Part shown: piece after piece, positions 1 to 16,013 of the stretch
Position numbering within the stretch: the first letter of the stretch is position 1
Layout of the letters: each line of letters starts with the position of its first letter
Assembly: GCF_014697105.1 (NCBI RefSeq)
Contig: NZ_JACJRF010000001.1
Location: 231,020 to 263,019 of the forward strand
DNA length: 32,000 bases
Direction of reading: 5' to 3'
From: Anabaena subtropica FACHB-260
Lineage (GTDB): Bacteria > Cyanobacteriota > Cyanobacteriia > Cyanobacteriales > Nostocaceae
Notes under the pieces: generated by a model
What the model saw: only the letters and a program-made list of their open reading frames with translations
What the model was told of the DNA's origin: nothing
The model's database searches: none
Made by a program: the position numbers and the translations under genes

Positions 1-84
1 CTGAAAGAAAAACTGGAAAGTATTAAAGCTTGAGTTTTTTTGTTAGTAAGATTCATGTGAGCAATCATAACTGTCAATTAATCT

Positions 85-90
85 AAGGAG
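85..90 (+). promoter_or_regulatory. Shine-Dalgarno-like AAGGAG in front of the leuC-like gene
   Basis: AAGGAG at 85-90 lies 9 nt upstream of the in-frame GTG at 100. The tracked TTG at 91 abuts the motif and is a less likely start. Confidence 0.5.
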
Positions 91-99
91 TTGTGTCTC

Positions 100-1545
100 G
101 TGGGAAAAAGCTTATATGAGAAAGTGTTTGAGTATCACACTATCAAACAATTACCTTCTGGACTCTATCAAATATTGGTAGGATTACATCTCATCCATGA
201 AGCTACTTCCCCGCAAGCCTTCTCCATGCTTCAGGAGCGCAATTTAAATGTCATGTTTCCTGATCGCACCTTCGCCACAGTTGATCACATCATCCCTACA
301 TCAGGATGCGATCGCCCTTTGTCAGATCCACTGGCTGAAGATATGTTAGTAGCTCTGGAAAAAAATACTGCTGAATATGGAATTAAGTTTTTTTCTCCTA
401 ATACTAACCAGCAAGGAATTATTCATGTAATTGCACCAGAAAAAGGTTTGACACAACCAGGTATGATTATTTGTTGTGGTGATTCTCATACTTCTACTCA
501 TGGGGCATTTGGAGCCATTGCATTGGGTATAGGTACCACCCAAATTCGTGATGTTTTAGCCTCTCAAACATTGGCAATGCCAAAATTGAAAGTTAGAAGA
601 ATTGATGTCAACGGTAAACTCAAATCTGGTGTTTATGCCAAAGATGTCATCTTACATATTATCAATCATCTCGGTGCCAAAGCTGGAGTAGGTTACGCTT
701 ATGAATACGGAGGTGATTTAATTGATAATTTGTCAATGGATGAGCGCATGACTATCTGTAATATGTCTATTGAAGGAGGCGCACGCTGCGGATATATCAA
801 CCCAGATCAAAAGACTTATGATTATCTCCAAGGACGAGAATTTGCCCCTCAAGAAAATAGCTGGAAACAAGCTATTGCTTATTGGGAATCTATAAAATCT
901 GACCCTGATACCTATTACGATGATCGGGTAATGTTCAAAGCAGAAGATATTGAACCGATGGTGACTTGGGGTATTAGCAGTGACCAATCTATAGGTATTA
1001 ATGAAACCATTCCTAGCTTCAGTCAGTTTCATGAATCAGAGCGCAACTTGATTGCAGAAGCTTATCAATATATGTCCTTTCAACCAGGTGCTTCCATCAA
1101 AGGTACTAAAATTGATGTAGCATTTATCGGTTCTTGCTCCAATGGTCGGTTTTCAGATTTAGAAACAGTTGCTCAATTATTAATTCAAAATAGAGGACTG
1201 AAAGTATCTCCCCATGTCAAGGCTTTAATTGTTCCTGGTTCTCAACAAGTCAGAGCCGAAATAATTAAACATGGTTATGACAAAGTATTCCAAGATGCTG
1301 GCTTTGAATTCCGAGAATCGGGATGTTCAATGTGTGTAGGAATCAATCCGGATAAACTCATCGGAAATCAAATTTGCGCCTCTTCATCAACTCGTAATTT
1401 TAAGGGAAGACAAGGTTCTCCTCAAGGTAGAACATTATTAATGTCTCCAGTTATGGTAGCTGCTGCTGCTATTGCAGGTGAACTTGTTGATGCGCGAAAT
1501 TTTTGGAAAATTAATTCAATTACACCCGCATTAGTTGGCGCTTGA
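100..1545 (+). CDS. leuC: 3-isopropylmalate dehydratase large subunit-like protein (aconitase family, LeuC type)
   Basis: ORF 91-1545, with the start moved to the GTG at 100 (gives [10 protein letters not shown], typical of LeuC N-termini). LeuC-type motifs are present: [44 protein letters not shown] (three Fe-S cysteines retained) and NFKGRQG. Confidence 0.85.
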
Positions 1546-1562
1546 GTTAGAAGATAAGCACA

Positions 1563-2177
1563 ATGAAAAATAATAAATCTATTATCTCTGCAACAGCAAT
1601 TAGTATTCATGGTGATGATATTGATACGGATAGAATTTTACCTGCTCGTTTTGTAAAAACACTAGTTTTTGACAAATTAGGTCAATACATTTTTGCAGAT
1701 GAAAGAATACAAAAACAACAACAATTTCAAATACATCCTTTAGATAATCCTGTCTATGCTGATGCTCAGTTGATGTTTGTTAATAAAAACTTTGGCTGCG
1801 GCTCTTCACGAGAACACGCGCCGCAAGGTATCAAACGATGGGGTAAAGGTATCAAAGCAATTATTGGTGAATCATTTGCAGAAATTTTTTTTGGTAACTG
1901 TAACGCTATTGGTCTTTTGTGTCTAACAGCTAGTACTGATATTCTAACGCAACTGATTAACTTGAATAAATGTGATCCGCAAATGAAATTTCATTTAGAT
2001 ATTCAGTCTTTAACTATTGCTTGTGAAAATAACAAATTTCCTGTATGGATGCCTGAAGGATTAAGGCAAAATTTTCTATCTGGTCATCAAGATTCGTTAC
2101 TGGAATTATTATCAGTTAGGCAGGAAATTATTAATACTGCTGAAAGAGTTCCTTATTTCCAATATTTAGAAGCATGA
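1563..2177 (+). CDS. leuD: 3-isopropylmalate dehydratase small subunit-like protein (LeuD type)
   Basis: 204-aa ORF starting 17 nt after the leuC-like stop. Motifs GDDIDTDRILPARF and NFGCGSSREHAPQ are typical of LeuD / the aconitase swivel domain. Confidence 0.85.
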   Translation: MKNNKSIISATAISIHGDDIDTDRILPARFVKTLVFDKLGQYIFADERIQKQQQFQIHPLDNPVYADAQLMFVNKNFGCGSSREHAPQGIKRWGKGIKAIIGESFAEIFFGNCNAIGLLCLTASTDILTQLINLNKCDPQMKFHLDIQSLTIACENNKFPVWMPEGLRQNFLSGHQDSLLELLSVRQEIINTAERVPYFQYLEA

Positions 2178-2246
2178 AGCAAATAAAAATCTTGTTTTAG
2201 TGTAGATATTTACATTTTTTTGAGTGTTAACTGTGGAAAAACGTCA

Positions 2247-3626
2247 ATGAGTAATGATAAAAATTCAGTTGCAGATATGAAGATTGAGCAACTTAATGGA
2301 AGTAACTCGGTAACTACAATTATTAAAGAAGAAGAAACTCTCACTAACAATTTAACAAAAGAACCTAGTCCAGATTCTGTAAAAAATCCTGAGCATCAAT
2401 CAGATTTTCGATTTAAGAAACAATTTTTGATTTTATTATGTGGTTTAGGTATAGTAGGGCTATTAGTAGCCTTCCTCTGGCAAAGACAAGGGAAAGTAAA
2501 AAGTATTCAAGCCTTTATTAATAGTGAAATTGTCTACGTTCGCGCTCCTATACCAGGAAAATTATCTTTAACAACTCAGCCAGAATTAGGTCAGCAACTG
2601 ACAAAAACAAAAGTAATTGGTAGTATTTCCGGTGATGTCGAAAACCAATTGGTATCATCGCTAAAAATCAATCAACAGACGCTAACATCACGTCTTGATA
2701 ATAATCGAGAGCGCCTAGCCGGACTCAATCAACAACTGAGAAATCGCACTAATTTACTAACGCAATTTAGTAATGCTAGTCAAGAACAACAAAAACTTCA
2801 GATTAAATTTGGACAATCTCAAGTTGATCAATTTGAAAATGATTTGATGAGAGCGCAAGCTGAGGCTGATATAGCTCAATCTGATGCAAAGCGTGCGGAT
2901 TTTTTACTGACAGAAGGTGCTATCAGCAAAGCAGCTCAAGAGCAGAAAGTCACACAAGCAAGACAAGCTCAAGCAGCATTATCAGCAGCGCGTTCCAGAG
3001 TTGAGCAACATAAACTCAGTTTGAATGCTGCGGCTAAGGGGTTACAGTTAGATGGCCCTCGTAGTTATAGTTATCCAGATATTCGCACCATTGAACTGAA
3101 GACGGAAATTGCAGATTTAAAAAATCAGATTTCTGACTTGCAGATTGAAATTCGAGGTAACGAAGCTGAGTTAGCTAGAGTACGTCAGGAGTTGAAAACC
3201 CAGAATCACATTTTAGTGCGATCGCCACAAGAAGGAGTGATTTGGTCGATTGAAGCACATTCCGGCGAAGTTCTTACAGCCAATGCTCCTATTTTGAAGT
3301 TAATTAACTGCAAGAACGTATGGGTAGAAGCCTTTATTGATGAGCGAGATGCTATTGCATTACAAATTGGACAATCTGTAGATGTTCATCTCATTGGCTC
3401 TCAAAAGATGTGGCCGGGAAAAATACAAACTATCAGAGCCGGTACAGGACGAGTGACAGTTGGACAATATGTTGTCGAACCACCCCCAGAAATTGAACGT
3501 CGCCAACTTCCCGTTCGTGTTGTCACTGCAAAAATTCAAGTTGATTGGTCAGACTCTTTGGACGCAGATAATTTCTGTAGTGCAGGTAGGAGTGTTGAAG
3601 TTAAAATTCGGAAAAATCAAAATTAA
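2247..3626 (+). CDS. HlyD-family periplasmic adaptor (membrane fusion protein)
   Basis: ORF 2220-3626; the first ATG is at 2247, with alternatives TTG 2220 and ATG 2277. It has one N-terminal TM helix (FLILLCGLGIVGLLVAFLW), a VRAPIPGKL lipoyl-like strand, a long Q/A-rich coiled coil, and a C-terminal beta domain (VRSPQEGVIW, VWVEAFIDE). Confidence 0.75.
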   Translation: MSNDKNSVADMKIEQLNGSNSVTTIIKEEETLTNNLTKEPSPDSVKNPEHQSDFRFKKQFLILLCGLGIVGLLVAFLWQRQGKVKSIQAFINSEIVYVRAPIPGKLSLTTQPELGQQLTKTKVIGSISGDVENQLVSSLKINQQTLTSRLDNNRERLAGLNQQLRNRTNLLTQFSNASQEQQKLQIKFGQSQVDQFENDLMRAQAEADIAQSDAKRADFLLTEGAISKAAQEQKVTQARQAQAALSAARSRVEQHKLSLNAAAKGLQLDGPRSYSYPDIRTIELKTEIADLKNQISDLQIEIRGNEAELARVRQELKTQNHILVRSPQEGVIWSIEAHSGEVLTANAPILKLINCKNVWVEAFIDERDAIALQIGQSVDVHLIGSQKMWPGKIQTIRAGTGRVTVGQYVVEPPPEIERRQLPVRVVTAKIQVDWSDSLDADNFCSAGRSVEVKIRKNQN

Positions 3627-3631
3627 CTGGT

Positions 3632-4810
3632 ATGAAATCTAATATTTTCTTTTTCTATTCATACCGAATTATATCAAGAATGTATTTCCATTTACCTGTG
3701 TTATTTCTGCACTTATTCTTATCAGGTATGGGTATTTTACTCACCGAAACATTGCTGATGGTTTATGGTTTATCAATTATGTTGAATACCAAAACAAATT
3801 CCTTTTTGTTAAACTATATGCCACAAAAATCTGTGATCGCTTTAGGGGAACTATTAAAGGCGATCGGTTTGTTTCTCATTATTTGGGGAACAAGAGTAGG
3901 TAATACTAACTTTTGGCTACCTTTTTTGGGGCAAATAATCGGCGGAAGTGGATTTAGTTTAGCGATTAGTAGTGATTCTAGTTTATTACGTTCAATTACT
4001 AGTAAATCTTCAACAGACTTATTTAATAATATTCAATCTAAATCTCAAAGCTTGATGTTCTTGTCTACTCTATTAGCAGGAGTTATCGGTAGCATTTTAT
4101 TTGATTATGAAGCCCATTGGCCTTTTTATATCTCAATGTTGGCGAATGCTATGGCAATTATATCTATTTTGTTAATTTCCGAAGAACCAAATTTAAGTAA
4201 GCAAAAAACATCCTCCTCTAAAACTCACAATTCAATTCAAAAGCCCAAAATTACTGCGGAACAAGGATTTTGGATGAATTACTATGCTTTATCTCGTGCT
4301 TTTTTACTAGCATCCTTTGTAGGGTTCTTACCTTTTTTCTTTTTGATGCTGCAAGTAGATATACCATTTTTTGGTCTAGTTCTCAGTTTATTTAGTATAG
4401 GTGCATTTTTTTCCGCACTTTATAGTTCTCAACTGATGAAAGTCATTGGTATTAATAATTTTATAATTATCACTATGGGATGTACTTTAATTTCTATGAT
4501 TTTGTTTAGTATATTTGAGGATTTTGGTATTAGCTTAATTGCTATATTATTGCTGGGATTTGGCTCAGGCTGCATACGACCACTGACAATGAAAAACTTA
4601 GACCTCAGCAACCTAAATCCTCAACAGAGAGCAAGTATTTTATCTACTATGGAACAACGTTTTAGCATAATAAATGCCGTGTTGTTATTAGTAGGTGGAT
4701 ATATATTGATTGAATATAACTTTCAATCTCTCATGATTCAAATAACAATAGCCTACGTCATAGCTATTCTTATTGGATTTACATCAAGTACAATGACAAG
4801 CAGGAGTTAA
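3632..4810 (+). CDS. MFS-type multi-pass membrane transporter
   Basis: 392-aa ORF starting 5 nt after the HlyD stop. It is hydrophobic throughout, with about 10-12 predicted helices split by a polar central loop (EEPNLSKQKTSSSKTHNS), which is the usual MFS 6+6 layout. Confidence 0.65.
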   Translation: MKSNIFFFYSYRIISRMYFHLPVLFLHLFLSGMGILLTETLLMVYGLSIMLNTKTNSFLLNYMPQKSVIALGELLKAIGLFLIIWGTRVGNTNFWLPFLGQIIGGSGFSLAISSDSSLLRSITSKSSTDLFNNIQSKSQSLMFLSTLLAGVIGSILFDYEAHWPFYISMLANAMAIISILLISEEPNLSKQKTSSSKTHNSIQKPKITAEQGFWMNYYALSRAFLLASFVGFLPFFFLMLQVDIPFFGLVLSLFSIGAFFSALYSSQLMKVIGINNFIIITMGCTLISMILFSIFEDFGISLIAILLLGFGSGCIRPLTMKNLDLSNLNPQQRASILSTMEQRFSIINAVLLLVGGYILIEYNFQSLMIQITIAYVIAILIGFTSSTMTSRS

Positions 4811-4814
4811 ATTC

Positions 4815-5243
4815 ATGGCTAATTTAGTTACCAAGCAAAGCATTTCTCAAGAACTAGCTCAAAAATTATTAAATGAGGCTGAATTTAAAGCACAAGAATT
4901 AGGCATACCTGCATCGATTGCAATATGTGATGAAAGTGGTGTACTTAAAGTGTTTGCTCGGATGGACGGCGCGCCTTTAATGAGTATTGAATTAGCAATT
5001 AAGAAAGCAAAAACATCTGTAGGATTTGGATTATCTACTGCTGATTTATTTAACTTTATCAAAAATGATCCTCCATTATGTATGGGTGCGCCACACATTG
5101 AAGATTTGGTTGTTTTTGGTGGCGGTCATCCTATCAAGGTTGATGGTCAAATCGTCGGAGGAATTGGAGTTAGTGGTGGCCACTATTCTTATGATGTCCA
5201 ATGTGTCGAAAAAGCTTTAGAACTTCTTGAAAATTCAGTTTAA
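4815..5243 (+). CDS. GlcG/HbpS-like (DUF336) heme-binding family protein
   Basis: 142-aa ORF starting 4 nt after the MFS stop. Family-typical stretches: IAICDESGVLKVFARMDGA, SIELAIKKAKTS and GGIGVSGG. Confidence 0.75.
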   Translation: MANLVTKQSISQELAQKLLNEAEFKAQELGIPASIAICDESGVLKVFARMDGAPLMSIELAIKKAKTSVGFGLSTADLFNFIKNDPPLCMGAPHIEDLVVFGGGHPIKVDGQIVGGIGVSGGHYSYDVQCVEKALELLENSV

Positions 5244-5265
5244 AAACTAAATATCTAAATATTTG

Positions 5266-5304
5266 GGATAGTTATAAATTTTTATATAACTATCCTATTT
5301 TTTT
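5266..5304 (+). terminator. Rho-independent terminator closing the leuC-like to DUF336 operon
   Basis: Perfect 11-bp stem GGATAGTTATA (5266-5276) / TATAACTATCC (5285-5295) with an 8-nt loop, followed by TATTTTTTT. Confidence 0.8.
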
Positions 5305-5378
5305 AAATTTTTCGTAAAACTGCATATTTTTAATAAAAATCATAGTTATTTATATATGATTTTTATCTTGATTTTATT

Positions 5379-6389
5379 ATGACAAGTACTTTCTTTTGTT
5401 CTCATCAATCAAGACTGGCAAGCGAATCACTTATTGGCAGTGCTAATAATGTCCAGGCTTATATTTTAATTGAATGTCCTCCACCTTGGGAATCAGAAGC
5501 GTTTGATTCTAAATATATCCCTAGTGACTTAAAAATTCTGGTAAATGAATGTAAAACAGCTAAATTACCTATCAAATTTCTTCTGATCGCTAACAATAAT
5601 TCTGAAAAATCAGGGCAGACAAAATTATTAATTTATCACAGGAAAGCTGGGCTAAGTAATGGATATAATAAGCGAGAATTCAACCTAAAAAATATTGAAG
5701 AAGTAGCAGAAATTGTTAGAGCATGGTTTTGGGGAAAAAATATTAGCAATGAAGTAGATATAACTGTAAGCAGAGATATTTTAGTTTGTACTCATGGCAG
5801 TCATGATAAATGCTGTGCTAGATATGGAAATCCCTTTTATTATCATGCTGCGGCTACTATTACTGATTTAAATTTGAAAAATGTGCGTATTTGGAAATCA
5901 ACTCATTTTGGTGGACATAGGTTTGCACCGACAATGATCGACCTACCGGAAGGAAGGTATTATGGTGTTCTTGAGCAGAATTCATTTAAGTCAATTTTGA
6001 CTCGCACTGGCAATATTAATCTTTTGAAGGATGTTTACCGGGGATGGAGTATTTTTCCTAGTTCACTTCAAATTCTTGAAAGGGAATTGCTTTTACGCTA
6101 TGGATGGGACTGGTTTAACTACAAGGTAGGGGGGAGAATTATTGAACAGAGTTCAGACCAAAGTATGATTTTAGCTGAACTGAATTTTGAAAATACTGGT
6201 GGTGATCAATTTACTTACCAAGCTGATATTTTAAAAGATGAAACTTTAACTGTGAGCTTGAAAAATTCTTGCCATGCAATGCTAGAGTCAGTAATTTTTC
6301 AATATTCCATATACAATCTGAAACAAGTAGGCAATAGAAATAACTTATTAGAAGCTGCCAACAATTCACTACTGACAACGCTGATTTAA
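5379..6389 (+). CDS. Sucrase/ferredoxin-like (thioredoxin-like fold) family protein
   Basis: 336-aa ORF with the family Cys/His signature ILVCTHGSHDKCCARYG and STHFGGHRFAPT. It has its own AT-rich upstream region after the terminator. Confidence 0.65.
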   Translation: MTSTFFCSHQSRLASESLIGSANNVQAYILIECPPPWESEAFDSKYIPSDLKILVNECKTAKLPIKFLLIANNNSEKSGQTKLLIYHRKAGLSNGYNKREFNLKNIEEVAEIVRAWFWGKNISNEVDITVSRDILVCTHGSHDKCCARYGNPFYYHAAATITDLNLKNVRIWKSTHFGGHRFAPTMIDLPEGRYYGVLEQNSFKSILTRTGNINLLKDVYRGWSIFPSSLQILERELLLRYGWDWFNYKVGGRIIEQSSDQSMILAELNFENTGGDQFTYQADILKDETLTVSLKNSCHAMLESVIFQYSIYNLKQVGNRNNLLEAANNSLLTTLI

Positions 6390-6708: not shown

Positions 6709-7614
6709 ATGTCTGTTGTTTCTTCTGTCACAGTAAAGGTTCCCGCCACAACTGCTAATTTGGGGCCTGGTTTTGACTGCATCGGTGCAGCCTTGACTAT
6801 ATATAATCAGTTCCAGTTCAACCGCTTGGATGAAGGGTTAATTATTCAGGTCACGGGCGCAGAAGCGGAACGAGTGCAAACAGATGAGAGTAATTTACTT
6901 TATCAGGCGTTTGTCAAGTTATATCAATATATAGATCAGCCAACGCCAGGAGTGAAAATAGAGATTGAGTTGGGTGTACCTTTGGCGCGGGGTTTGGGTA
7001 GTTCGGCCACAGCCATTGTTGGGGGTTTGGTGGCGGCGAATAGATTAGCGGGTGAACCCCTATCTCAAGAGCAGGTGATGGAATTAGCGATCGCCATTGA
7101 AGGACATCCTGATAATGTAGTCCCAGCTTTGTTGGGGGGATGTCGTCTGGCTGCTACTAGTGCTAAGGGTTGGGAAATTTGCGATGTTCCCTGGCATAGT
7201 GATGTTGTTCCAGTGGTAGCGATTCCTGATTTTGAATTGTCAACCTCAGAGGCGCGGCGAGTTTTACCAACAGAATATAGTCGTGCAGATGCAATTTTCA
7301 ATACTGCCCATTTAGGTTTATTGTTGCGTGGCTTGGAAACAGGTAAGAGAGAATGGTTAAGGGCAGCTTTACAAGATAAGTTACATCAGCCTTATCGCCA
7401 AGCTTTAATTCCTGGTTACGATGCTGTGAATACTGCGGCTGTGAAGGCTGGTGCTTACGGTATGGTGATTAGTGGCGCGGGGCCAACATTGTTGGCTTTA
7501 GCTAATGTATCTCATGCGGGAGCTGTTGAGGCGGCAATGTCCACAGCTTGGCAAGAAGCAGGAATTACGGCTGTAGTGCGATCGCTTGCTCTCGATACTC
7601 ATGGCGCAACTTAA
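6709..7614 (+). CDS. thrB: Homoserine kinase
   Basis: N-terminus [21 protein letters not shown] and GHMP-kinase motif [14 protein letters not shown]. Length 301 aa. Confidence 0.92.
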
Positions 7615-7630
7615 CAATTCAAAATTCATA

Positions 7631-8170
7631 ATGAAAGAACTTAACCCCAGTTTGCCTTTAGAGCAAATTCAGTCGGAGATGACGGCGCTTAAGTCACAAA
7701 TCCAAGTGCTTGAGCAGGAACGTGCTGCACTCACCATTAATAATGATGTGATTACTCACGAGAATGATTCACCTTTCGCAATTGTCGAAGCTTATCGCCG
7801 CCAAGCGCGGGAAAATGCCCAACTATTTGCTGAACTCAAAGGCATAGAAGATGCGATCGCTGCTTTAGACTTGCAGTTACAGTACAAAAAAACTGAATTA
7901 GCCCGTTTACCAAGAAGACTTCAACAAATTAACCAAGAACAACAGCTAGAAGCAGCCAAAGAAGTCGCTCAAGTCCATGCTGAACGAATCAATCAAATAG
8001 CGGGGGAATTAGCCACGGAAATTCGCCTGCTCAAAGCTTGTGCCGATGAACTCAGTCCCTTGTATTGGCAAGTGTATTACAAGCCTTTCATCACGGGATT
8101 CAAAACGATCTCAGTTCCTTATGTCCGTTCAGATGGGGCAGTTTGGACTATTGTCAATCGCATTGTTTAG
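7631..8170 (+). CDS. Hypothetical coiled-coil protein
   Basis: ORF 7586-8170. The ATG at 7631 avoids overlap with thrB; the alternative is ATG 7601. Heptad-rich Q/E/L sequence with no recognised domain. Confidence 0.55.
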   Translation: MKELNPSLPLEQIQSEMTALKSQIQVLEQERAALTINNDVITHENDSPFAIVEAYRRQARENAQLFAELKGIEDAIAALDLQLQYKKTELARLPRRLQQINQEQQLEAAKEVAQVHAERINQIAGELATEIRLLKACADELSPLYWQVYYKPFITGFKTISVPYVRSDGAVWTIVNRIV

Positions 8171-10173: not shown

Positions 10174-10590
10174 TTATTTTGGCAATTTTTTAGACCATTC
10201 CTGAAAATCATGTTCATAAGATTCTCCACTAGTTTTATAAGCATTCATACCAGAAAAGAATAAACCTAATCCCCAACCCAACAGGGGAAAAATTGCCCAG
10301 AAGTAGGAAGGACTTGTCAAGAAATTCAACACAATCAAAAATCCATTGACACCAATAAAAGAAATCAGGTGTGTTTTAAACTCTTCACGTCGTTGAGCAT
10401 GAAATCTTTGCCGCTTCTTTTCTCCTATTTCTTGAGTCAACCATTCTTGTTCAGCCGCTTGTAGAGATGCTGATGAAACCCCTAATTCCGAAGCAATTTC
10501 TATAATTTGCTGTCGTGAAATTTCTCCCTGTTGCTGACGAGTAAAAGCTTTTTGAAGAATCTGCTGCATTTGTTCTGAATTGTAAGTCAT
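10174..10590 (-). CDS. 2TM domain-containing membrane protein
   Basis: 138 aa. A polar helical N-terminal part is followed by two adjacent hydrophobic helices (HLISFIGVNGFLIVLNFL, WAIFPLLGWGLGLFFSGM), the layout typical of the 2TM family. Confidence 0.6.
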   Translation of the reverse strand: MTYNSEQMQQILQKAFTRQQQGEISRQQIIEIASELGVSSASLQAAEQEWLTQEIGEKKRQRFHAQRREEFKTHLISFIGVNGFLIVLNFLTSPSYFWAIFPLLGWGLGLFFSGMNAYKTSGESYEHDFQEWSKKLPK

Positions 10591-11105
10591 ATAAATACCT
10601 CAAAAAGGAGAAAAGATAAATTTTGGAACTTTAGCTACAAAACCCTTAAAAATATATTTACCTGTTGTTACGAACTGCTAAGACTCACATTTTATATCTG
10701 AAAAAATAATCCATACAGTAATTGAAAACACAAATATATAAGACAATTTTTTTGTTAGAGTGCCTTACTTAGAGCCTATTTATAAAGTAAATATTAAGTA
10801 GGGGAGGCAAAAAGCGGTGTAGATCTTCTTCCCGCTTTATTGCCGTTGTGTTACGGCAGCGTGAGGACTTGAGTATGAACGACAGTATAAATTGCCGTAA
10901 CGCACCATAATCACACGGTGCGTTACGCGTTGCTTTAATACACCCCACAATTTAAGCTTTATGCCGAAAATATCGCTTGGGGAAGAAACTATCACCCAAA
11001 ACTTAAAATTCAGGTAGTAGTCTTTCGGAGGTGATAAATTGAGATTTTGATCATCACTTCTAACAAACTTGTAAAATGTAAACAGTGAACAATTATTTTC
11101 ACCTT

Positions 11106-11264
11106 ATGACTGTAAAAAATCAGCCTGAAAAAGATAAATTGGACGCAAGTGCTAACATAAATACCAACCAAGAAATAGAAAAAATTTTATGTTCTCATTG
11201 TCAGCGTACAGCTACAAACGGAATTAAATGTAAAGGAATCTGTATAACTGACAATGAATATTAA
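11106..11264 (+). CDS. Small Cys-rich protein (52 aa), not in the ORF track
   Basis: Translated by hand from ATG 11106 to TAA 11262-11264: MTVKNQPEKDKLDASANINTNQEIEKILCSHCQRTATNGIKCKGICITDNEY. The CxxC-x10-CxxxC spacing suggests a zinc-ribbon-like protein. No clear SD. Confidence 0.4.
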   Translation: MTVKNQPEKDKLDASANINTNQEIEKILCSHCQRTATNGIKCKGICITDNEY

Positions 11265-12724
11265 CAAGATTTTAACTGTGTTAGTAATACAACTATTTCA
11301 TCAATGGCTTGCCGTAAAACACTCGCTGGCTGTCCAGATTGATTCACCATAACACTAAAAACTAAAGGTTCATACGTAGGAGGATTCACATATCCAGATA
11401 GAGAAATTGCACCGCTTAAAGTGCCTGTTTTTGCTTGTACAATTCCCTCCGCAGGAGTATTACGCAAGCGGTTTCTCAACGTACCACTTTTCCCAGCCAC
11501 AGGTAAGGAAGCACGATATACATTGGCGACTGGTGTTTTGCTTATTCCTTGCAAAGTTTGTACTAAAGCTTCAGGAGTTATTAAATTACGTCGAGATAAA
11601 CCAGAAGCATCTACCAAAACATAACCTGTGGGATCAACACCTAATTGATTTAAGTTTGTTTTAATAGCTTCTAAACCAATGTCAGCAGTAGTTTTATTCT
11701 GCAATCTGGGTTGTTTAAATGCTAATGTTCTTAATAAAGCCTCAGCATACAAATTATTACTATTTTGATTTGTCTCTATCAACAATTGTGATAAAGGCGG
11801 GGACTGTACAGCAGCTAATTCCTGTTGATTAGCAGCACTAGAAGCAACTAATGTTGTACCCAAACTAATTTTTTCTGTGGATAAGGCACTACGAAAACGT
11901 CGCAGGAAGTAATAATTAGGATCAACTACGGGCAATTCTACTAAATATGGAGTGGAATTAGCTGCAACTTGTCCTTTAATTCGCAGCACTTTTCCTGTTA
12001 AATCACGGCTAACATCAATATAACTTGGTTGATTTGCTGCAACTGTTACAGATTGATTGATTATCAACCATTGTCTTGCTTCATTGGGGTCATTCCACAA
12101 CAATTGTGGAGTCTTACCTACAGTTTGAGGAATGAGTTTTAAACCAAATACATTTTGATTCAAAATAAAACTATTGACTGGCGCACCATAATTTGACTGC
12201 ACATCTTCCCATTGCCAAGTCGAGTTAACAATATCCCCTTGAATATAACTATCATCAGCAATTAGCTGACTAATTTGGGTGATACCTTTCTGTTTTAGTT
12301 GTTGTGCTAGTGATTGCAATTGAGTATCGCTGAGGCTAGGGTCACCTCTACCAACAACAGTGAAATTGCCATTACCATTTTGATAAACTGAGGTACGAAT
12401 ACGAAAGTCTGCACCTAGTTGTTGTAAGGCAGCAGCTGTAGTCAGCAATTTAGCATTAGAAGCGGGAGTGAAGTATTTCTCTGCATCTCGACTGTAGAGT
12501 GTTTGCACGGATGAGAGAGGTTTTACTAAGATACCCCAGCGCACTCGATTAAATAAGGGACGATTAACTATTGTATCTATGGCTGTTCTCAGTTCCGCCG
12601 GACAAATAGATTTTGTGGTGGGTGTAGGTGCGGTTGGGGTTTGGGCTTTAACTAGTTGCTGGGTAACACTAACTTGAACACTAATAAATAATGCCATCAA
12701 GCCAAGAGAAATTTTTCGGGGCAT
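11261..12724 (-). CDS. dacB: D-alanyl-D-alanine carboxypeptidase/endopeptidase (PBP4, peptidase S13)
   Basis: Signal peptide, then the active-site motifs SNAK (TPASNAKLLT), SGLSRRN and KTGT (VQAKTGTLSG). Confidence 0.88.
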   Translation of the reverse strand: MPRKISLGLMALFISVQVSVTQQLVKAQTPTAPTPTTKSICPAELRTAIDTIVNRPLFNRVRWGILVKPLSSVQTLYSRDAEKYFTPASNAKLLTTAAALQQLGADFRIRTSVYQNGNGNFTVVGRGDPSLSDTQLQSLAQQLKQKGITQISQLIADDSYIQGDIVNSTWQWEDVQSNYGAPVNSFILNQNVFGLKLIPQTVGKTPQLLWNDPNEARQWLIINQSVTVAANQPSYIDVSRDLTGKVLRIKGQVAANSTPYLVELPVVDPNYYFLRRFRSALSTEKISLGTTLVASSAANQQELAAVQSPPLSQLLIETNQNSNNLYAEALLRTLAFKQPRLQNKTTADIGLEAIKTNLNQLGVDPTGYVLVDASGLSRRNLITPEALVQTLQGISKTPVANVYRASLPVAGKSGTLRNRLRNTPAEGIVQAKTGTLSGAISLSGYVNPPTYEPLVFSVMVNQSGQPASVLRQAIDEIVVLLTQLKSC

Positions 12725-12821
12725 ACAGAGTGATTAAAACTACTTGACGATGATAGCTTGCTTATGAATTGAACCACTAGGCGCGGGAAAGCATTATTCT
12801 CTATTGAGAGGCTGTTAAACT

Positions 12822-13286
12822 GTGAAAAATCAGTATAATTGCGCTTTTATTGAGTTTATGTCATTAACTGCTGCTGCGATCGCTACTTTAATTGCCACTA
12901 AGGTCTTTGAAACAACCGTAGAGAAAATAACTGAAAGTACAATAGACAAGCTGAAACTGCTACGTCAGAAAATTTGGGACAAGTTCACGGGTAAGCCGAA
13001 AGCGCAAGAAGCTTTAACAAAAGCTGAACAAGGTTCTAAGGAAGATTTAAACTTGGTTACCGCCTACCTACAGGTAGAAATGGATACAGATAGTCAATTT
13101 GGCGAAGAAGTTCAAAGCCTTGCCCAAGAAATTCACCAAGAAATTAATATTGGTAAGATTCAAGGTAAAAATGTCCAAAATGTTTATGGAGGGCAAGGTT
13201 TTCAGAATATTGATAGTAAAGCACCCATCTTTCAAGGTGTAGAAAATAGCCCGATTACTATCAATTACAATAATTCTTCTGATTGA
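12822..13286 (+). CDS. N-terminal helical module plus Q/N/G-rich linker of an NLR-like protein, ended by an in-frame TGA
   Basis: ORF from GTG 12822 (alternative ATG 12858, MSLTAAAIATLIATKVFE...). It is in the same frame as the NB-ARC ORF at 13347, with one TGA at 13284-13286 and 20 sense codons between them. Confidence 0.6.
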   Translation: MKNQYNCAFIEFMSLTAAAIATLIATKVFETTVEKITESTIDKLKLLRQKIWDKFTGKPKAQEALTKAEQGSKEDLNLVTAYLQVEMDTDSQFGEEVQSLAQEIHQEINIGKIQGKNVQNVYGGQGFQNIDSKAPIFQGVENSPITINYNNSSD

Positions 13287-13346: not shown

Positions 13347-16013
13347 TTGCCCCTGAGTGGGGTAACAAAATTTGTTGGGCGGGAGGAGGAACTGCACACC
13401 CTCCGCCAACTTTTACAGAAAAATGACCGTGTAGCCATTGCGGCTATTGCGGGGATGGGTGGACTGGGTAAAACAGAACTGGCGTTGCAATATGCCATCC
13501 AGCATCGTGAAATTTATACGGGGGGAATTTGCTGGTTATTGCCCAAGTCTGGGGATGTGGGGCTACAAATTGTCCAGTTTGCCAGAACTTATTTTGATTT
13601 AAACCCACCGGATGATTTAGATTTACCCGGACGGGTGCAGTATTGCTGGCGGCGTTGGCGTGAGGGTGAGGTGTTGCTGGTGGTGGATGATGTCAGCGAC
13701 TATGAGGAAGTCAAGCTTTATCTTCCGTCCTCATCTTCTCGGTTTAAAGTGTTGTTGACTTCCCGCCAGCGTTTGGGAAAAATTGCCCAGTTATCTTTAG
13801 ATGTGCTGCAACCAGAGGCGGCGTTAGAGTTGTTGGTGTCGATTATTGGCAAGGAACGGGTTGAAAATGACCTAAACCCCCTGCCCCCTTCCCTACTAGG
13901 GAAGGGGGAGAGTGATTCCCCTCGCCTTGTAGGAGAGGGGTTAGGGGAGAGGTCAGAGGGTGAATTAGTGGCGTTGGGGTTGTGTGAGTGGTTGGGGTAT
14001 TTGCCTTTGGCTGTAGAGTTGGTGGGACGGTATCTGGCACGAAAGCAAGATTTATCGCTGGCGGAAATGTTGCGACGGTTGGAGAATAAGCGACTAGAAC
14101 AACGCGCCTTGATGAAGGCAGAAGCTGATATGACAGCAAAACGAGGTGTGTTAGCTGCTTTTGAGTTGAGTTGGCTGGAATTAGAGGAAAATGATCAGCA
14201 ATTGGGTTGTTTATTAAGTTTATTCGCCGCCGCGCCTATCCCTTGGAAGTTGGTGGAACAGTGCTTACCAGAGGAAGATGAGGAAGATTTAGAAGATATT
14301 AGAGACGATAAGTTGCTGAATCTGCATTTACTCCAGCGTAAAGGTGAGGGAATATATCAACTGCATTCCCTGTTGCGGGAGTTTTTCCAATTTAAGCTTA
14401 GAGGTTTAGAACAGGCAGAGGAATTTAAGCATTCTGTTTGTAGAGTGATGATAGCAGTTGCTCAAGATATTTCTTATACTTCCACACTTGTGCAAATTAA
14501 GAATGTCGCCCCAGCAATACCTCACTTAGCAGAAGTAGCAACCAATCTCTTTCAGTATATTAGTAATGATGATTTAATTTGGGCATTTGTTGGCAACGCT
14601 TTTTTTTATCATGGTCAAGGACTATATGATAAAGCAGTACCTTGGTTTGAGCAGTGCCTAGAAATTACCAAAAAACACTTAGGGGAAGAACATCCATCTG
14701 TCGCCACTAGCCTCAACAACCTAGCGTCACTCTACAAATCCCAAGGGAAATACAGCAAAGCCGAACCCTTGTACATCCAAGCTTTGGCTCTGTATCGCAA
14801 ACTCTTAGGTGAAGAACATCTAGATGTCGCACTCAGTCTCAACAACCTCGCAGCACTCTACGACTCCCAAGGGAAATACAGCGAAGCCGAACCCTTGTAC
14901 ATCCAAGCTTTGGCTCTCAAGCTCAAACTCCTGGGTGAAGAACATCTAGATGTCGCACTTAGCCTCAACAATTTAGCAGAACTCTACAAATCCCAAGGGA
15001 AATACAGCAAAGCCGAACTCTTGTACATCCAAGCTTTGACTCTCAAGCGCAAACTCCTGGGTGAAGAACATCCATCTGTCGCACTTAGCCTCAACAACCT
15101 CACAGCACTCTACCACTCCCAAGGGAAATACAGCGAAGCTGAATTCTTGTTCATCCAAGCTTTGGCACTGCGGCGTAAACTCCTGGGTGAAGAACATCCT
15201 GATGTCGCCCAAAGCCTCAACAACCTAGCTCTACTCTACAAATCCCAAGGAAAATACAGCGAAGCCGAACCCTTGTACATCCAAGCTTTGGCTCTGTGTC
15301 GCAAACTCCTGGGTGAAGAACATCCTGATGTTGCCACTAGCCTCAACAACCTAGCTCTACTCTATGACTCCCAAGGGAAATACAGCGAAGCCGAACTCTT
15401 GTATATCCAAGCTTTGGCACTGCGGCGTAAACTCCTGGGTGAAGAACATCCTGATGTCGCCACTAGCCTCAACAATCTAGCTGGACTCTATGACTTCCAA
15501 GGGAAATACAGCCAAGCCGAACTCTTGTACATCCAAGCTTTGGCTCTGTATCGCAAACTCCTGGGTGAAGAACATCCTGATGTCGCCACTAGCCTCAACA
15601 ACCTAGCGTCACTCTACTACTCCCAAGGGAAATACAGCGAAGCCGAACCCTTGTACATCCAAGCTTTGGCACTGCGGCGCAAACTCCTGGGTGAAGAACA
15701 TCCTGATGTCGCCACTAGCCTCAACAACCTCGCAGCACTCTACGACTCCCAAGGGAAATACAGCGAAGCTGAACCCTTGTACATTCAAGCTTTGGCACTG
15801 CGGCGTAAACTCCTGGGTGAAGAACATCCTGATGTCGCCCAAAGCCTCAACAACCTAGCTGAACTCTACGACTCCCAAGGGAAATACAGCGAAGCCGAAC
15901 CCTTGTACATCCAAGCTTTAGATATTTTTGAGCAACAGTTAGGAGTAAATCATCCTAATACGGTGACTGTGCGTAAAAATTTAGCATATTTGCGTGAGTG
16001 TTTAAACTCATAA
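13347..16013 (+). CDS. NB-ARC (STAND NTPase) plus TPR-repeat protein, NLR-like. May be the 3' part of a split or readthrough gene.
   Basis: P-loop GMGGLGKTELA, Walker B LLVVDDV, LLTSRQR and a GLPLA-like LGYLPLAVEL, followed by about 12 TPR units. The only start before the P-loop is TTG 13347; the first ATG lies inside the P-loop. Confidence 0.8.
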   Translation: MPLSGVTKFVGREEELHTLRQLLQKNDRVAIAAIAGMGGLGKTELALQYAIQHREIYTGGICWLLPKSGDVGLQIVQFARTYFDLNPPDDLDLPGRVQYCWRRWREGEVLLVVDDVSDYEEVKLYLPSSSSRFKVLLTSRQRLGKIAQLSLDVLQPEAALELLVSIIGKERVENDLNPLPPSLLGKGESDSPRLVGEGLGERSEGELVALGLCEWLGYLPLAVELVGRYLARKQDLSLAEMLRRLENKRLEQRALMKAEADMTAKRGVLAAFELSWLELEENDQQLGCLLSLFAAAPIPWKLVEQCLPEEDEEDLEDIRDDKLLNLHLLQRKGEGIYQLHSLLREFFQFKLRGLEQAEEFKHSVCRVMIAVAQDISYTSTLVQIKNVAPAIPHLAEVATNLFQYISNDDLIWAFVGNAFFYHGQGLYDKAVPWFEQCLEITKKHLGEEHPSVATSLNNLASLYKSQGKYSKAEPLYIQALALYRKLLGEEHLDVALSLNNLAALYDSQGKYSEAEPLYIQALALKLKLLGEEHLDVALSLNNLAELYKSQGKYSKAELLYIQALTLKRKLLGEEHPSVALSLNNLTALYHSQGKYSEAEFLFIQALALRRKLLGEEHPDVAQSLNNLALLYKSQGKYSEAEPLYIQALALCRKLLGEEHPDVATSLNNLALLYDSQGKYSEAELLYIQALALRRKLLGEEHPDVATSLNNLAGLYDFQGKYSQAELLYIQALALYRKLLGEEHPDVATSLNNLASLYYSQGKYSEAEPLYIQALALRRKLLGEEHPDVATSLNNLAALYDSQGKYSEAEPLYIQALALRRKLLGEEHPDVAQSLNNLAELYDSQGKYSEAEPLYIQALDIFEQQLGVNHPNTVTVRKNLAYLRECLNS
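13870..13965. repeat. Hairpin-type small dispersed repeat inserted in frame within the NB-ARC domain
   Basis: Palindrome CCCCCTTCCCTA-C-TAGGGAAGGGGG (13884-13908) and hairpin CCCCTC...GAGGGG (13918-13940). Together they encode LNPLPPSLLGKGESDSPRLVGEGLGERSEG between conserved NB-ARC helices. Borders are approximate. Confidence 0.65.
14679..15938 (+). repeat. Tandem 126-bp repeat array (ten near-identical 42-aa TPR units)
   Basis: The unit LGEEHPDVATSLNNLAxLYxSQGKYSEAEPLYIQALALRRKL recurs ten times with very high nucleotide identity. Degenerate units flank the array. Confidence 0.9.

Follow-up and report, generated by a model that had tools for sequence, protein, structure and literature searches.

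Enzymes of the leucine pathway have paralogues that are known to provide unusual building blocks. In Nostoc punctiforme the HphA/HphB/HphCD genes for homophenylalanine/homotyrosine homologation follow a LeuA/LeuB/LeuCD logic (PMC12961565). Aminotransferases are usually encoded outside homologation clusters, and the specificity positions of LeuA-family synthases read L/E/S in 2-isopropylmalate synthase (IPMS), H/R/T in homocitrate synthase and A/D/A (A73/D157/A159) in HphA (PMC12961565). The locus considered here lies in a stretch of 32,000 nucleotides from Anabaena subtropica FACHB-260 (NCBI RefSeq assembly GCF_014697105.1, contig NZ_JACJRF010000001.1, positions 231,020 to 263,019 of the forward strand), called the window below. 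At its left end a LeuC/LeuD-type isomerase pair is encoded directly ahead of an HlyD/EmrA-type adaptor, a major facilitator superfamily (MFS) transporter and a GlcG-like protein. Positions 1-5304 of the window, and probably the sequence up to 6389, are likely to be the distal half of a rare, conserved and horizontally mobile gene cluster that makes an exported small molecule. The cluster is of a known kind, in that leucine-pathway paralogues are recruited to specialised metabolism, and it offers a substantial chance of new enzymology. The leucine-type paralogues are tied here to three enzyme types whose part in small-molecule metabolism has barely been explored: stand-alone TsaC/YrdC-like proteins, a CADD-like oxygenase without the sacrificial tyrosine, and an Amidohydro_2 protein.

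Gene organization at the left end of the window

Genes in the window were called from a list of open reading frames (ORFs) and by direct reading of the sequence, and families were assigned by Pfam and NCBIfam profile searches. The features from the left end onward are:

1-33, + strand: 3′ end of the gene for a divergent Sua5/YciO/YrdC-type protein, YrdC-b; the frame reads ...LKEKLESIKA*, with the stop at 31-33
100-1545, + strand: LeuC-type large subunit of an aconitase-family isomerase, 481 aa (Pfam Aconitase, 2e-160)
1563-2177, + strand: LeuD-type small subunit, 204 aa (Pfam Aconitase_C, 8e-17)
2247-3626 (ATG start; alternative TTG start at 2220), + strand: HlyD/EmrA-type membrane-fusion (periplasmic adaptor) protein (HlyD_3, 4e-15; HlyD_D23, 5e-12)
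3632-4810, + strand: MFS transporter, 392 aa (MFS_1, 2e-20)
4815-5243, + strand: GlcG/HbpS-like protein (PF03928), last gene of the operon (HbpS-like, 4.7e-35, 128 of 128 profile positions)
5264-5304, + strand: intrinsic-terminator-like hairpin with a 13-bp stem and an 8-nt loop (5264-5297; inverted repeat I1), followed by TTTTTTT
5379-6389, + strand: Suc_Fer-like thioredoxin-like [2Fe-2S] protein, 336 aa (PF06999, 1e-31)

The LeuC gene, whose product is the 481-aa database protein P0001, starts at a GTG codon 9 nt past an AAGGAG at 85-90. A preliminary description of this DNA had reported five same-strand genes separated by 17, 42-69, 5 and 4 nt and a strong terminator at 5266-5304. The ORF list and direct reading agree with the spacing (the second gap being 42 or 69 nt depending on the adaptor start), and a terminator scan gives the hairpin and T-run listed above. 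Within 1-5243 the scan of the + strand reveals no terminator-like site between genes; its sole other match, at 5171-5185, falls within the GlcG gene. The spacing suggests that LeuC, LeuD, HlyD, MFS and GlcG share a single transcript. Scans of the window for Rfam families, tRNAs and repeats yield nothing relevant and no repeats that could bound an island.

The preliminary description also held that the gene upstream ends at 31-33 and that the 5′ part of the module lies beyond the window, where a leuA-like gene should be sought. All of this is borne out by database proteins from the strain. The upstream gene product is P0123 (231 aa, "Sua5/YciO/YrdC/YwlC family protein", MBD2342708.1/WP_190405190.1), retrieved with a query from a related metagenome locus, the YrdC-family protein encoded ahead of LeuC; its C-terminus, ...YQLKEKLESIKA, matches the window frame LKEKLESIKA*. 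P0188 (393 aa, MBD2342705.1) is a LeuA-family protein of the same strain with HMGL-like and HCS_D2 domains and without the LeuA_dimer regulatory domain. P0188 and P0123 are encoded on one 342,035-bp contig, a length also recorded for the contig of the window LeuC (P0001), and their accessions are three numbers apart. Protein accessions of whole-genome shotgun assemblies normally run in gene order, so two genes should intervene between MBD2342705 and MBD2342708, as they do in L001, the closest of the related loci, where they encode a CADD-like oxygenase and another protein of the YrdC type. The order in Anabaena, resting on synteny with close relatives and on the accession numbering, would thus be LeuA-like synthase, CADD-like oxygenase, YrdC-a (TsaC-like), YrdC-b, LeuC, LeuD, HlyD, MFS, GlcG, terminator and Suc_Fer-like ferredoxin.

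The same gene set in other genomes

The nearest LeuC relatives are only 74-76% identical and derive from metagenomes, and their contigs reveal the gene context. L006-L010 were found by way of more distant YrdC-b homologues (48-58% identity). The gene content of the loci is as follows:

L001: LeuA-like, TenA/haem-oxygenase-like protein (the CADD-like oxygenase), YrdC-a, YrdC-b, LeuC, LeuD, MFS, HlyD, then a transposase
L002: YrdC-a (3′ end, opening the contig), YrdC-b, LeuC, LeuD
L003/L004: LeuA-like, Amidohydro_2, oxygenase, YrdC-a, YrdC-b, LeuC, isocitrate lyase (ICL)/phosphoenolpyruvate (PEP)-mutase-family gene, MFS, transposases; close by, on the opposite strand, LeuD and a citrate-synthase-like gene
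L006-L010: LeuA-like, YrdC-b, Amidohydro_2, oxygenase, YrdC-a, LeuC, LeuD, MFS, in slightly varying order

The set that recurs over the nine related loci comprises a LeuA-like synthase, a CADD-like dimetal oxygenase, two YrdC-type proteins, LeuC, LeuD and an MFS transporter. An HlyD adaptor is present in L006, L008 and L010, and a divergent citrate synthase in four of the five loci L006-L010. The loci come from cyanobacterial-type metagenomes, a metagenome-assembled genome (MAG) of Ramlibacter (L007) and other MAGs, and further YrdC-b and LeuA-like matches bear the names Sulfurifustaceae, Sulfurifustis and Kofleriaceae. The cluster spans cyanobacteria and a betaproteobacterial Ramlibacter MAG, although YrdC-b is very rare. 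Mobile elements flank several copies, with transposases at L001 and L003 and an integrase and a transposase at L009; a plasmid search returned no copy of the cluster, only a distant module in Variovorax. No account of the cluster was found in the searchable literature, coverage of which is incomplete. Directly upstream of the cluster in the Ramlibacter MAG (L007, 6526-8106) lie two autoinducer-synthase (LuxI-type) genes and a PEBP-family gene, and a PEBP-family gene also occurs within the cluster of L010.

A metagenome scan with the window LeuC supplied a control of 80 loci in which LeuC is 57-65% identical. Every one of them has leuC followed by leuD, often with leuA and leuB behind, and no homologue of YrdC, the CADD-like oxygenase (HDO), the MFS transporter or the HlyD adaptor occurs in any of the 80. 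The absence of the partners from canonical loci makes the association specific to the cluster. With synteny in nine other loci and with LeuA-family and YrdC-b genes upstream, the proposal of the preliminary description that this is an uncharacterised biosynthesis-plus-export module, and not leuCD beside a random pump, holds. It had counted GlcG as part of the module. The 4-nt spacing and the third-position GC content (GC3) of the GlcG gene agree with that, but GlcG is no conserved partner: L001-L010 contain no GlcG homologue, and it is at most a lineage-specific accessory, either passenger or helper.

The LeuC-LeuD pair

The window LeuC retains the aconitase catalytic motifs and all three Fe-S cysteines that had been noted earlier, Cys346 in GSCSNG and Cys409 and Cys412 in GCSMCVG. 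It passes the broader NCBIfam model NF004016 for the LeuC subfamily (662, cut-off 510) and lies below the cut-off of TIGR00170 (547.9 versus 560.25). LeuD is under both of its NCBIfam cut-offs (157 against 167, and 95.8 against 116.25 for TIGR00171). The window LeuC is 69-76% identical to LeuC of the cluster loci L001-L005, 57-65% to LeuC of canonical leu operons and about 40% to that of L006-L010; the window LeuD is 46-62% identical to LeuD of L001-L003 and about 40% to canonical LeuD of the same subfamily. On a neighbour-joining tree the window LeuC groups with P0003, L001, L002 and L003, beside LeuC of the Sumerlaeota and Polyangia type; the L006-L010 sequences fall into a clade of their own, closer to E. 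coli-type LeuC. In database searches too the nearest kin of the window LeuC beyond the cluster are non-cyanobacterial. At positions that never vary among 59 canonical sequences LeuC carries clade-specific changes such as N431T, G48N and T347S/A, the last directly after the first cysteine ligand.

The isomerase pairs of the cyanobacterial-type clusters L001-L003 and of the proteobacterial-type clusters L006-L010 belong to different LeuCD subfamilies, with about 40% identity, whereas the other cluster proteins are orthologous across both groups. LeuCD thus seems to have undergone non-orthologous replacement during the history of the cluster. Such an exchange suggests that a fairly generic alkylmalate isomerase suffices.

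Partner enzymes of the cluster

The LeuA-like family keeps the catalytic motifs FDTTLRDGEQ, HxH and GIGERAGN and has no regulatory domain. At the aligned specificity positions it reads F/S/G(A), and its substrate probably differs from those of IPMS, homocitrate synthase and HphA. Identification as a homocitrate synthase is ruled out by the absence of the carboxylate-binding His/Arg pair. Orthologues at least 54% identical include proteins of cultured Burkholderia multivorans/vietnamiensis (WP_059875198/WP_176315800) and Crossiella equi (WP_158103305), after which identity falls to 46% or less.

The oxygenase, as encoded in the related loci, has its closest structures in CADD/CT610 (1rcw, 8va9 and 9pj4, E about 1e-15). 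All six metal ligands are kept, the sacrificial Tyr27 of CADD aligns to a valine, and the score on TIGR04305 is 91 against a cut-off of 200. The valine rules out a self-sacrificing p-aminobenzoate synthase of the CADD type. The cluster enzyme most likely acts on a free substrate. The Amidohydro_2 protein of the cluster is nearest to the diiron monooxygenase PtmU3.

The two YrdC-type proteins differ in their distance from the tRNA-modification enzymes of this fold. YrdC-a of L006 barely exceeds the cut-off of the TsaC model TIGR00057 (127 versus 123), while the YrdC-b orthologue P0130 scores 38.5 against 123.2. The best PDB matches of P0123 have E = 3e-5 or weaker, and KxR and SxN-like motifs are kept on direct reading. 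YrdC-b is a very small family: of 1.84 billion representatives, 335 match at E<=1e-3, 84 at E<=1e-10 and 24 at E<=1e-30. Its members occur as fusions, LeuA-like::YrdC-b in P0331, P0334 and P0133 and YrdC-b::oxygenase (haem-oxygenase-like) in P0309, and YrdC domains are also fused to HpcH/HpaI (CitE-like) lyases in P0395 and P0380. These fusions indicate that the YrdC-b subfamily works directly with alkylmalate- or citrate-type enzymes. A further arrangement is found in Variovorax paradoxus VAI-C (CP063167.1, 873239-883535; L092), where an operon of catabolic appearance, governed by a GntR regulator, contains esterase, TctC, ICL/PEP mutase, TctC, YrdC, YrdC, acyl-CoA ligase, LeuC, LeuD and CapA; the YrdC genes are of the YrdC-b type and the ICL-like gene is 45% identical to that of L003. 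Synthases, isomerases and lyases of substituted malates and citrates keep appearing beside YrdC-b-type proteins, and we infer that these proteins act on hydroxy-acids of this kind. That they activate them with ATP, by analogy with the chemistry of TsaC, is a plausible hypothesis.

A redox partner may complete the set. The Suc_Fer-like protein encoded beyond the terminator has the Apd1/Aim32-type Cys/His motifs CTHGSHDKCC (residue 137) and HFGGH (residue 176). Small thioredoxin-like [2Fe-2S] ferredoxins are encoded after LeuC or LeuD in L007 (17406-17747), L010 (8290-8598) and L009 (17296-17575); the gene in L009 looks frameshifted. The related loci contain no Suc_Fer orthologue, and the resemblance to their small ferredoxins is weak and at family level. 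The Suc_Fer-like protein may therefore be an accessory redox partner, a functional analogue of the relatives' ferredoxins and not an orthologue. This pattern suggests a recurrent ferredoxin-type redox partner, which might for instance reduce the dimetal oxygenase.

The export pair

The window adaptor matches the EmrA/EmrK subfamily best among NCBIfam models, below the cut-off, and has a barrel-sandwich domain and one N-terminal transmembrane (TM) segment at residues 60-78. Its identity is 54% with the L001 adaptor and 34-40% with the adaptors encoded in L006, L008 and L010. The MFS protein is 57-58% identical to its counterparts in L001/L003, 47-48% to those in L006/L008 and 38% to that in L010. 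These identities indicate that the export pair belongs to the cluster. The adaptor and MFS genes adjoin or overlap in L001, L006 and L008 (overlapping in L006), and in L010 a gene for a LysR-type regulator stands between them. The MFS protein matches no EmrB/DHA2 model, its weak best NCBIfam matches being CynX/NimT and Tet(A). No TolC-like gene or other outer-membrane component was found in the window or the related loci.

Composition and neighbouring genes

GC3 is 0.19-0.29 across 100-6389 and 0.32-0.48 in most neighbouring genes, so that the composition of the block looks foreign. GlcG (0.21) resembles the rest of the block, and the Suc_Fer-like protein (0.25) is its final gene; the low-GC3 block halts before thrB (0.37) and other housekeeping genes. 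Low GC3 is not exclusive to the cluster block, since a second such stretch (0.24-0.30) occupies 10174-13286 of the window and encodes a 2TM-domain protein, a D-Ala-D-Ala carboxypeptidase (Peptidase_S13) and a 154-aa ORF without a family match.

Two other neighbours may be mentioned. A 194-aa ORF at 7586-8170, without a Pfam or NCBIfam match and with a glutamine- and alanine-rich translation, shares 29 nt with the 3′ end of thrB (6709-7614), which lies on the same strand. At 13347-16013 the window encodes an 888-aa NB-ARC and TPR-repeat (STAND-type NTPase) protein, which has the highest GC3 of the window (0.48).

A possible pathway

The gene set can be arranged into a hypothetical sequence of four steps. 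The LeuA-like synthase would condense acetyl-CoA with a 2-oxo acid other than 2-oxoisovalerate and 2-oxoglutarate to give a 2-substituted malate, as the chemistry of the family and the unusual specificity residues suggest. The window LeuCD would then dehydrate and rehydrate this compound on its [4Fe-4S] cluster to a 3-substituted malate, a role consistent with the fully conserved catalytic apparatus and the obligatory pairing with the synthase. In a third, speculative step prompted by the LeuA-like::YrdC-b and YrdC-b::oxygenase fusions, the YrdC-type proteins may use ATP to activate the hydroxy-acid or an amine derived from it, and the dimetal oxygenase may modify the product oxidatively. Finally, the adaptor-MFS architecture suggests that MFS and HlyD adaptor expel the product over the envelope, presumably via a TolC-type channel of the host. 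A more specific version is tentative. In it the YrdC-type enzymes would act on alkylmalate- or isocitrate-like hydroxy-acids and not on tRNA-modification intermediates, for instance by adenylating a carboxylate isosteric with N-carboxy-threonine; the CADD-like oxygenase would remodel the product, and a new class of secreted small molecule (such as a metallophore, signal or antimetabolite) would leave through the unusual pair of 12-TM MFS and HlyD.

Alternative explanations

Several observations weigh against assigning the block to a biosynthesis-and-export cluster. The neighbour-joining tree places the window LeuCD within the canonical LeuCD radiation. A regression over 1,770 canonical pairs indicates that LeuD has diverged as the divergence of LeuC predicts, and the substrate loop of LeuD, PARFVKTLVFDKLG, is near-canonical when set beside PARFLKSVSFEGLE of canonical LeuD of the same subfamily. 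LeuD is thus neither unusually diverged nor altered in its loop, and given both, the sub-threshold NCBIfam scores are no evidence of a new specificity and weak when taken alone. The LeuC and LeuD sequences by themselves prove no role outside leucine biosynthesis. The MFS protein has about 11-12 hydrophobic segments and not the 14 TM segments of EmrB-type adaptor partners. The two genes that should separate P0188 from P0123 are predicted for Anabaena from its relatives. In Variovorax the genes beside YrdC-b-like proteins and LeuCD serve uptake and catabolism, and the shared module is thus not biosynthetic by nature. Lastly, substrate, product and transcript are predictions from the genes, and every chemical step is an inference. 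The canonical placement, the expected divergence and near-canonical loop of LeuD, and the pass of LeuC on NF004016 are what ordinary leucine biosynthesis would produce, with the pair as the working leuCD of the organism beside an unrelated efflux pump and GlcG. This explanation is nevertheless highly improbable: across phyla LeuCD, MFS and adaptor travel with the LeuA-like synthase, two YrdC proteins and HDO in the nine loci, canonical leuCD never keeps such company in the control set, the composition looks foreign, the nearest relatives outside the cluster are from Sumerlaeota and Polyangia and not from cyanobacteria, and LeuC and LeuD both fall under equivalog cut-offs, with LeuC changed at otherwise invariant positions.

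The preliminary description had likened the genes to the Hph set. A cassette of that type would supply a homo-amino acid to a nonribosomal peptide synthetase (NRPS) product; the LeuA-like/LeuCD logic of the analogy stands, the upstream synthase P0188 lacks the regulatory domain, and housekeeping LeuB and aminotransferases could complete the homologation cycle. Its other elements were not recovered. LeuB is absent from L001-L010, though canonical loci in the same search do give LeuB matches; no LeuB-like, aminotransferase, NRPS or polyketide synthase (PKS) gene occurs within 10 kb in L001, L003 and L006-L010, and no gene for a ribosomally synthesised and post-translationally modified peptide was seen in the related loci. 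An oxygenase, two YrdC proteins and a dedicated exporter as constant partners point instead to a free small molecule, and F/S/G(A) differs from the A/D/A of HphA, which makes a homologation cassette very unlikely. A catabolic or salvage cluster, in which an alkylmalate or an acid of tricarboxylate type enters through the MFS protein and is processed for breakdown by LeuCD and YrdC, would account for the Variovorax operon with its TctC, ICL/PEP-mutase, YrdC-b-type and LeuC-LeuD genes, as well as for the fusion of YrdC domains to HpcH/CitE-type lyases. It too is unlikely, since every cluster of the window family contains a Claisen-condensing synthase, often with a citrate-synthase-like one, and these are biosynthetic enzymes; pairing of the transporter with an HlyD/EmrA-type adaptor is an efflux architecture, and the loci L001 and L003/L004 (cluster A) contain no binding-protein uptake system or catabolic regulator.

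A cluster for an exported small molecule would be a tractable entry to a new function of the Sua5/YciO/YrdC superfamily and to a secreted metabolite. The labels "3-isopropylmalate dehydratase", "2-isopropylmalate synthase" and "threonylcarbamoyl-AMP synthase" at these loci are probably mis-assigned.

Comparison with known systems

The cluster shares parts with several described systems without coinciding with any. EmrAB-TolC likewise combines an MFS transporter with a neighbouring adaptor that is anchored by one N-terminal TM segment and carries a barrel-sandwich domain, and EmrA/EmrK is the best match of the window adaptor; the differences are the 392-aa, roughly 12-TM MFS protein outside EmrB/DHA2 and the lack of an outer-membrane gene nearby. 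With CADD (CT610), the p-aminobenzoate synthase, the cluster oxygenase has six dimetal ligands in common but not the sacrificial tyrosine, and its gene is expected outside the window. TsaC/Sua5 threonylcarbamoyl-AMP synthases have the Sua5_yciO_yrdC fold in common with the YrdC proteins, and YrdC-a of L006 even passes TIGR00057. YrdC-b, in contrast, is far below that cut-off, rare and fused to other domains, and it stands in a metabolic context with no tRNA-modification partners nearby.

Homocitrate synthase and homoaconitase, known from the alpha-aminoadipate pathway to lysine and from 2-oxoacid elongation in methanogens, also pair a short LeuA-family synthase carrying HCS_D2 with a LeuCD-type isomerase; here Phe/Ser replace the His/Arg that bind the distal carboxylate of 2-oxoglutarate, and there is no homoisocitrate dehydrogenase. 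Canonical LeuCD, the 3-isopropylmalate dehydratase, has the same two-subunit aconitase-family build, Fe-S ligands and catalytic motifs, whereas the window pair is set apart by its genomic partners, sub-equivalog scores, clade-specific substitutions and foreign-looking composition. Like HphA/HphB/HphCD of Nostoc punctiforme (PMC12961565), the genes form a cyanobacterial paralogue set in which a LeuA-type enzyme without the leucine-feedback domain is joined to a LeuCD-type isomerase outside leucine biosynthesis. Unlike the Hph genes they have no HphB/LeuB-type dehydrogenase beside them and, in L003 and L006-L010, no NRPS within 10 kb; the CADD-like oxygenase, the YrdC pair and the exporter are their constant partners instead.

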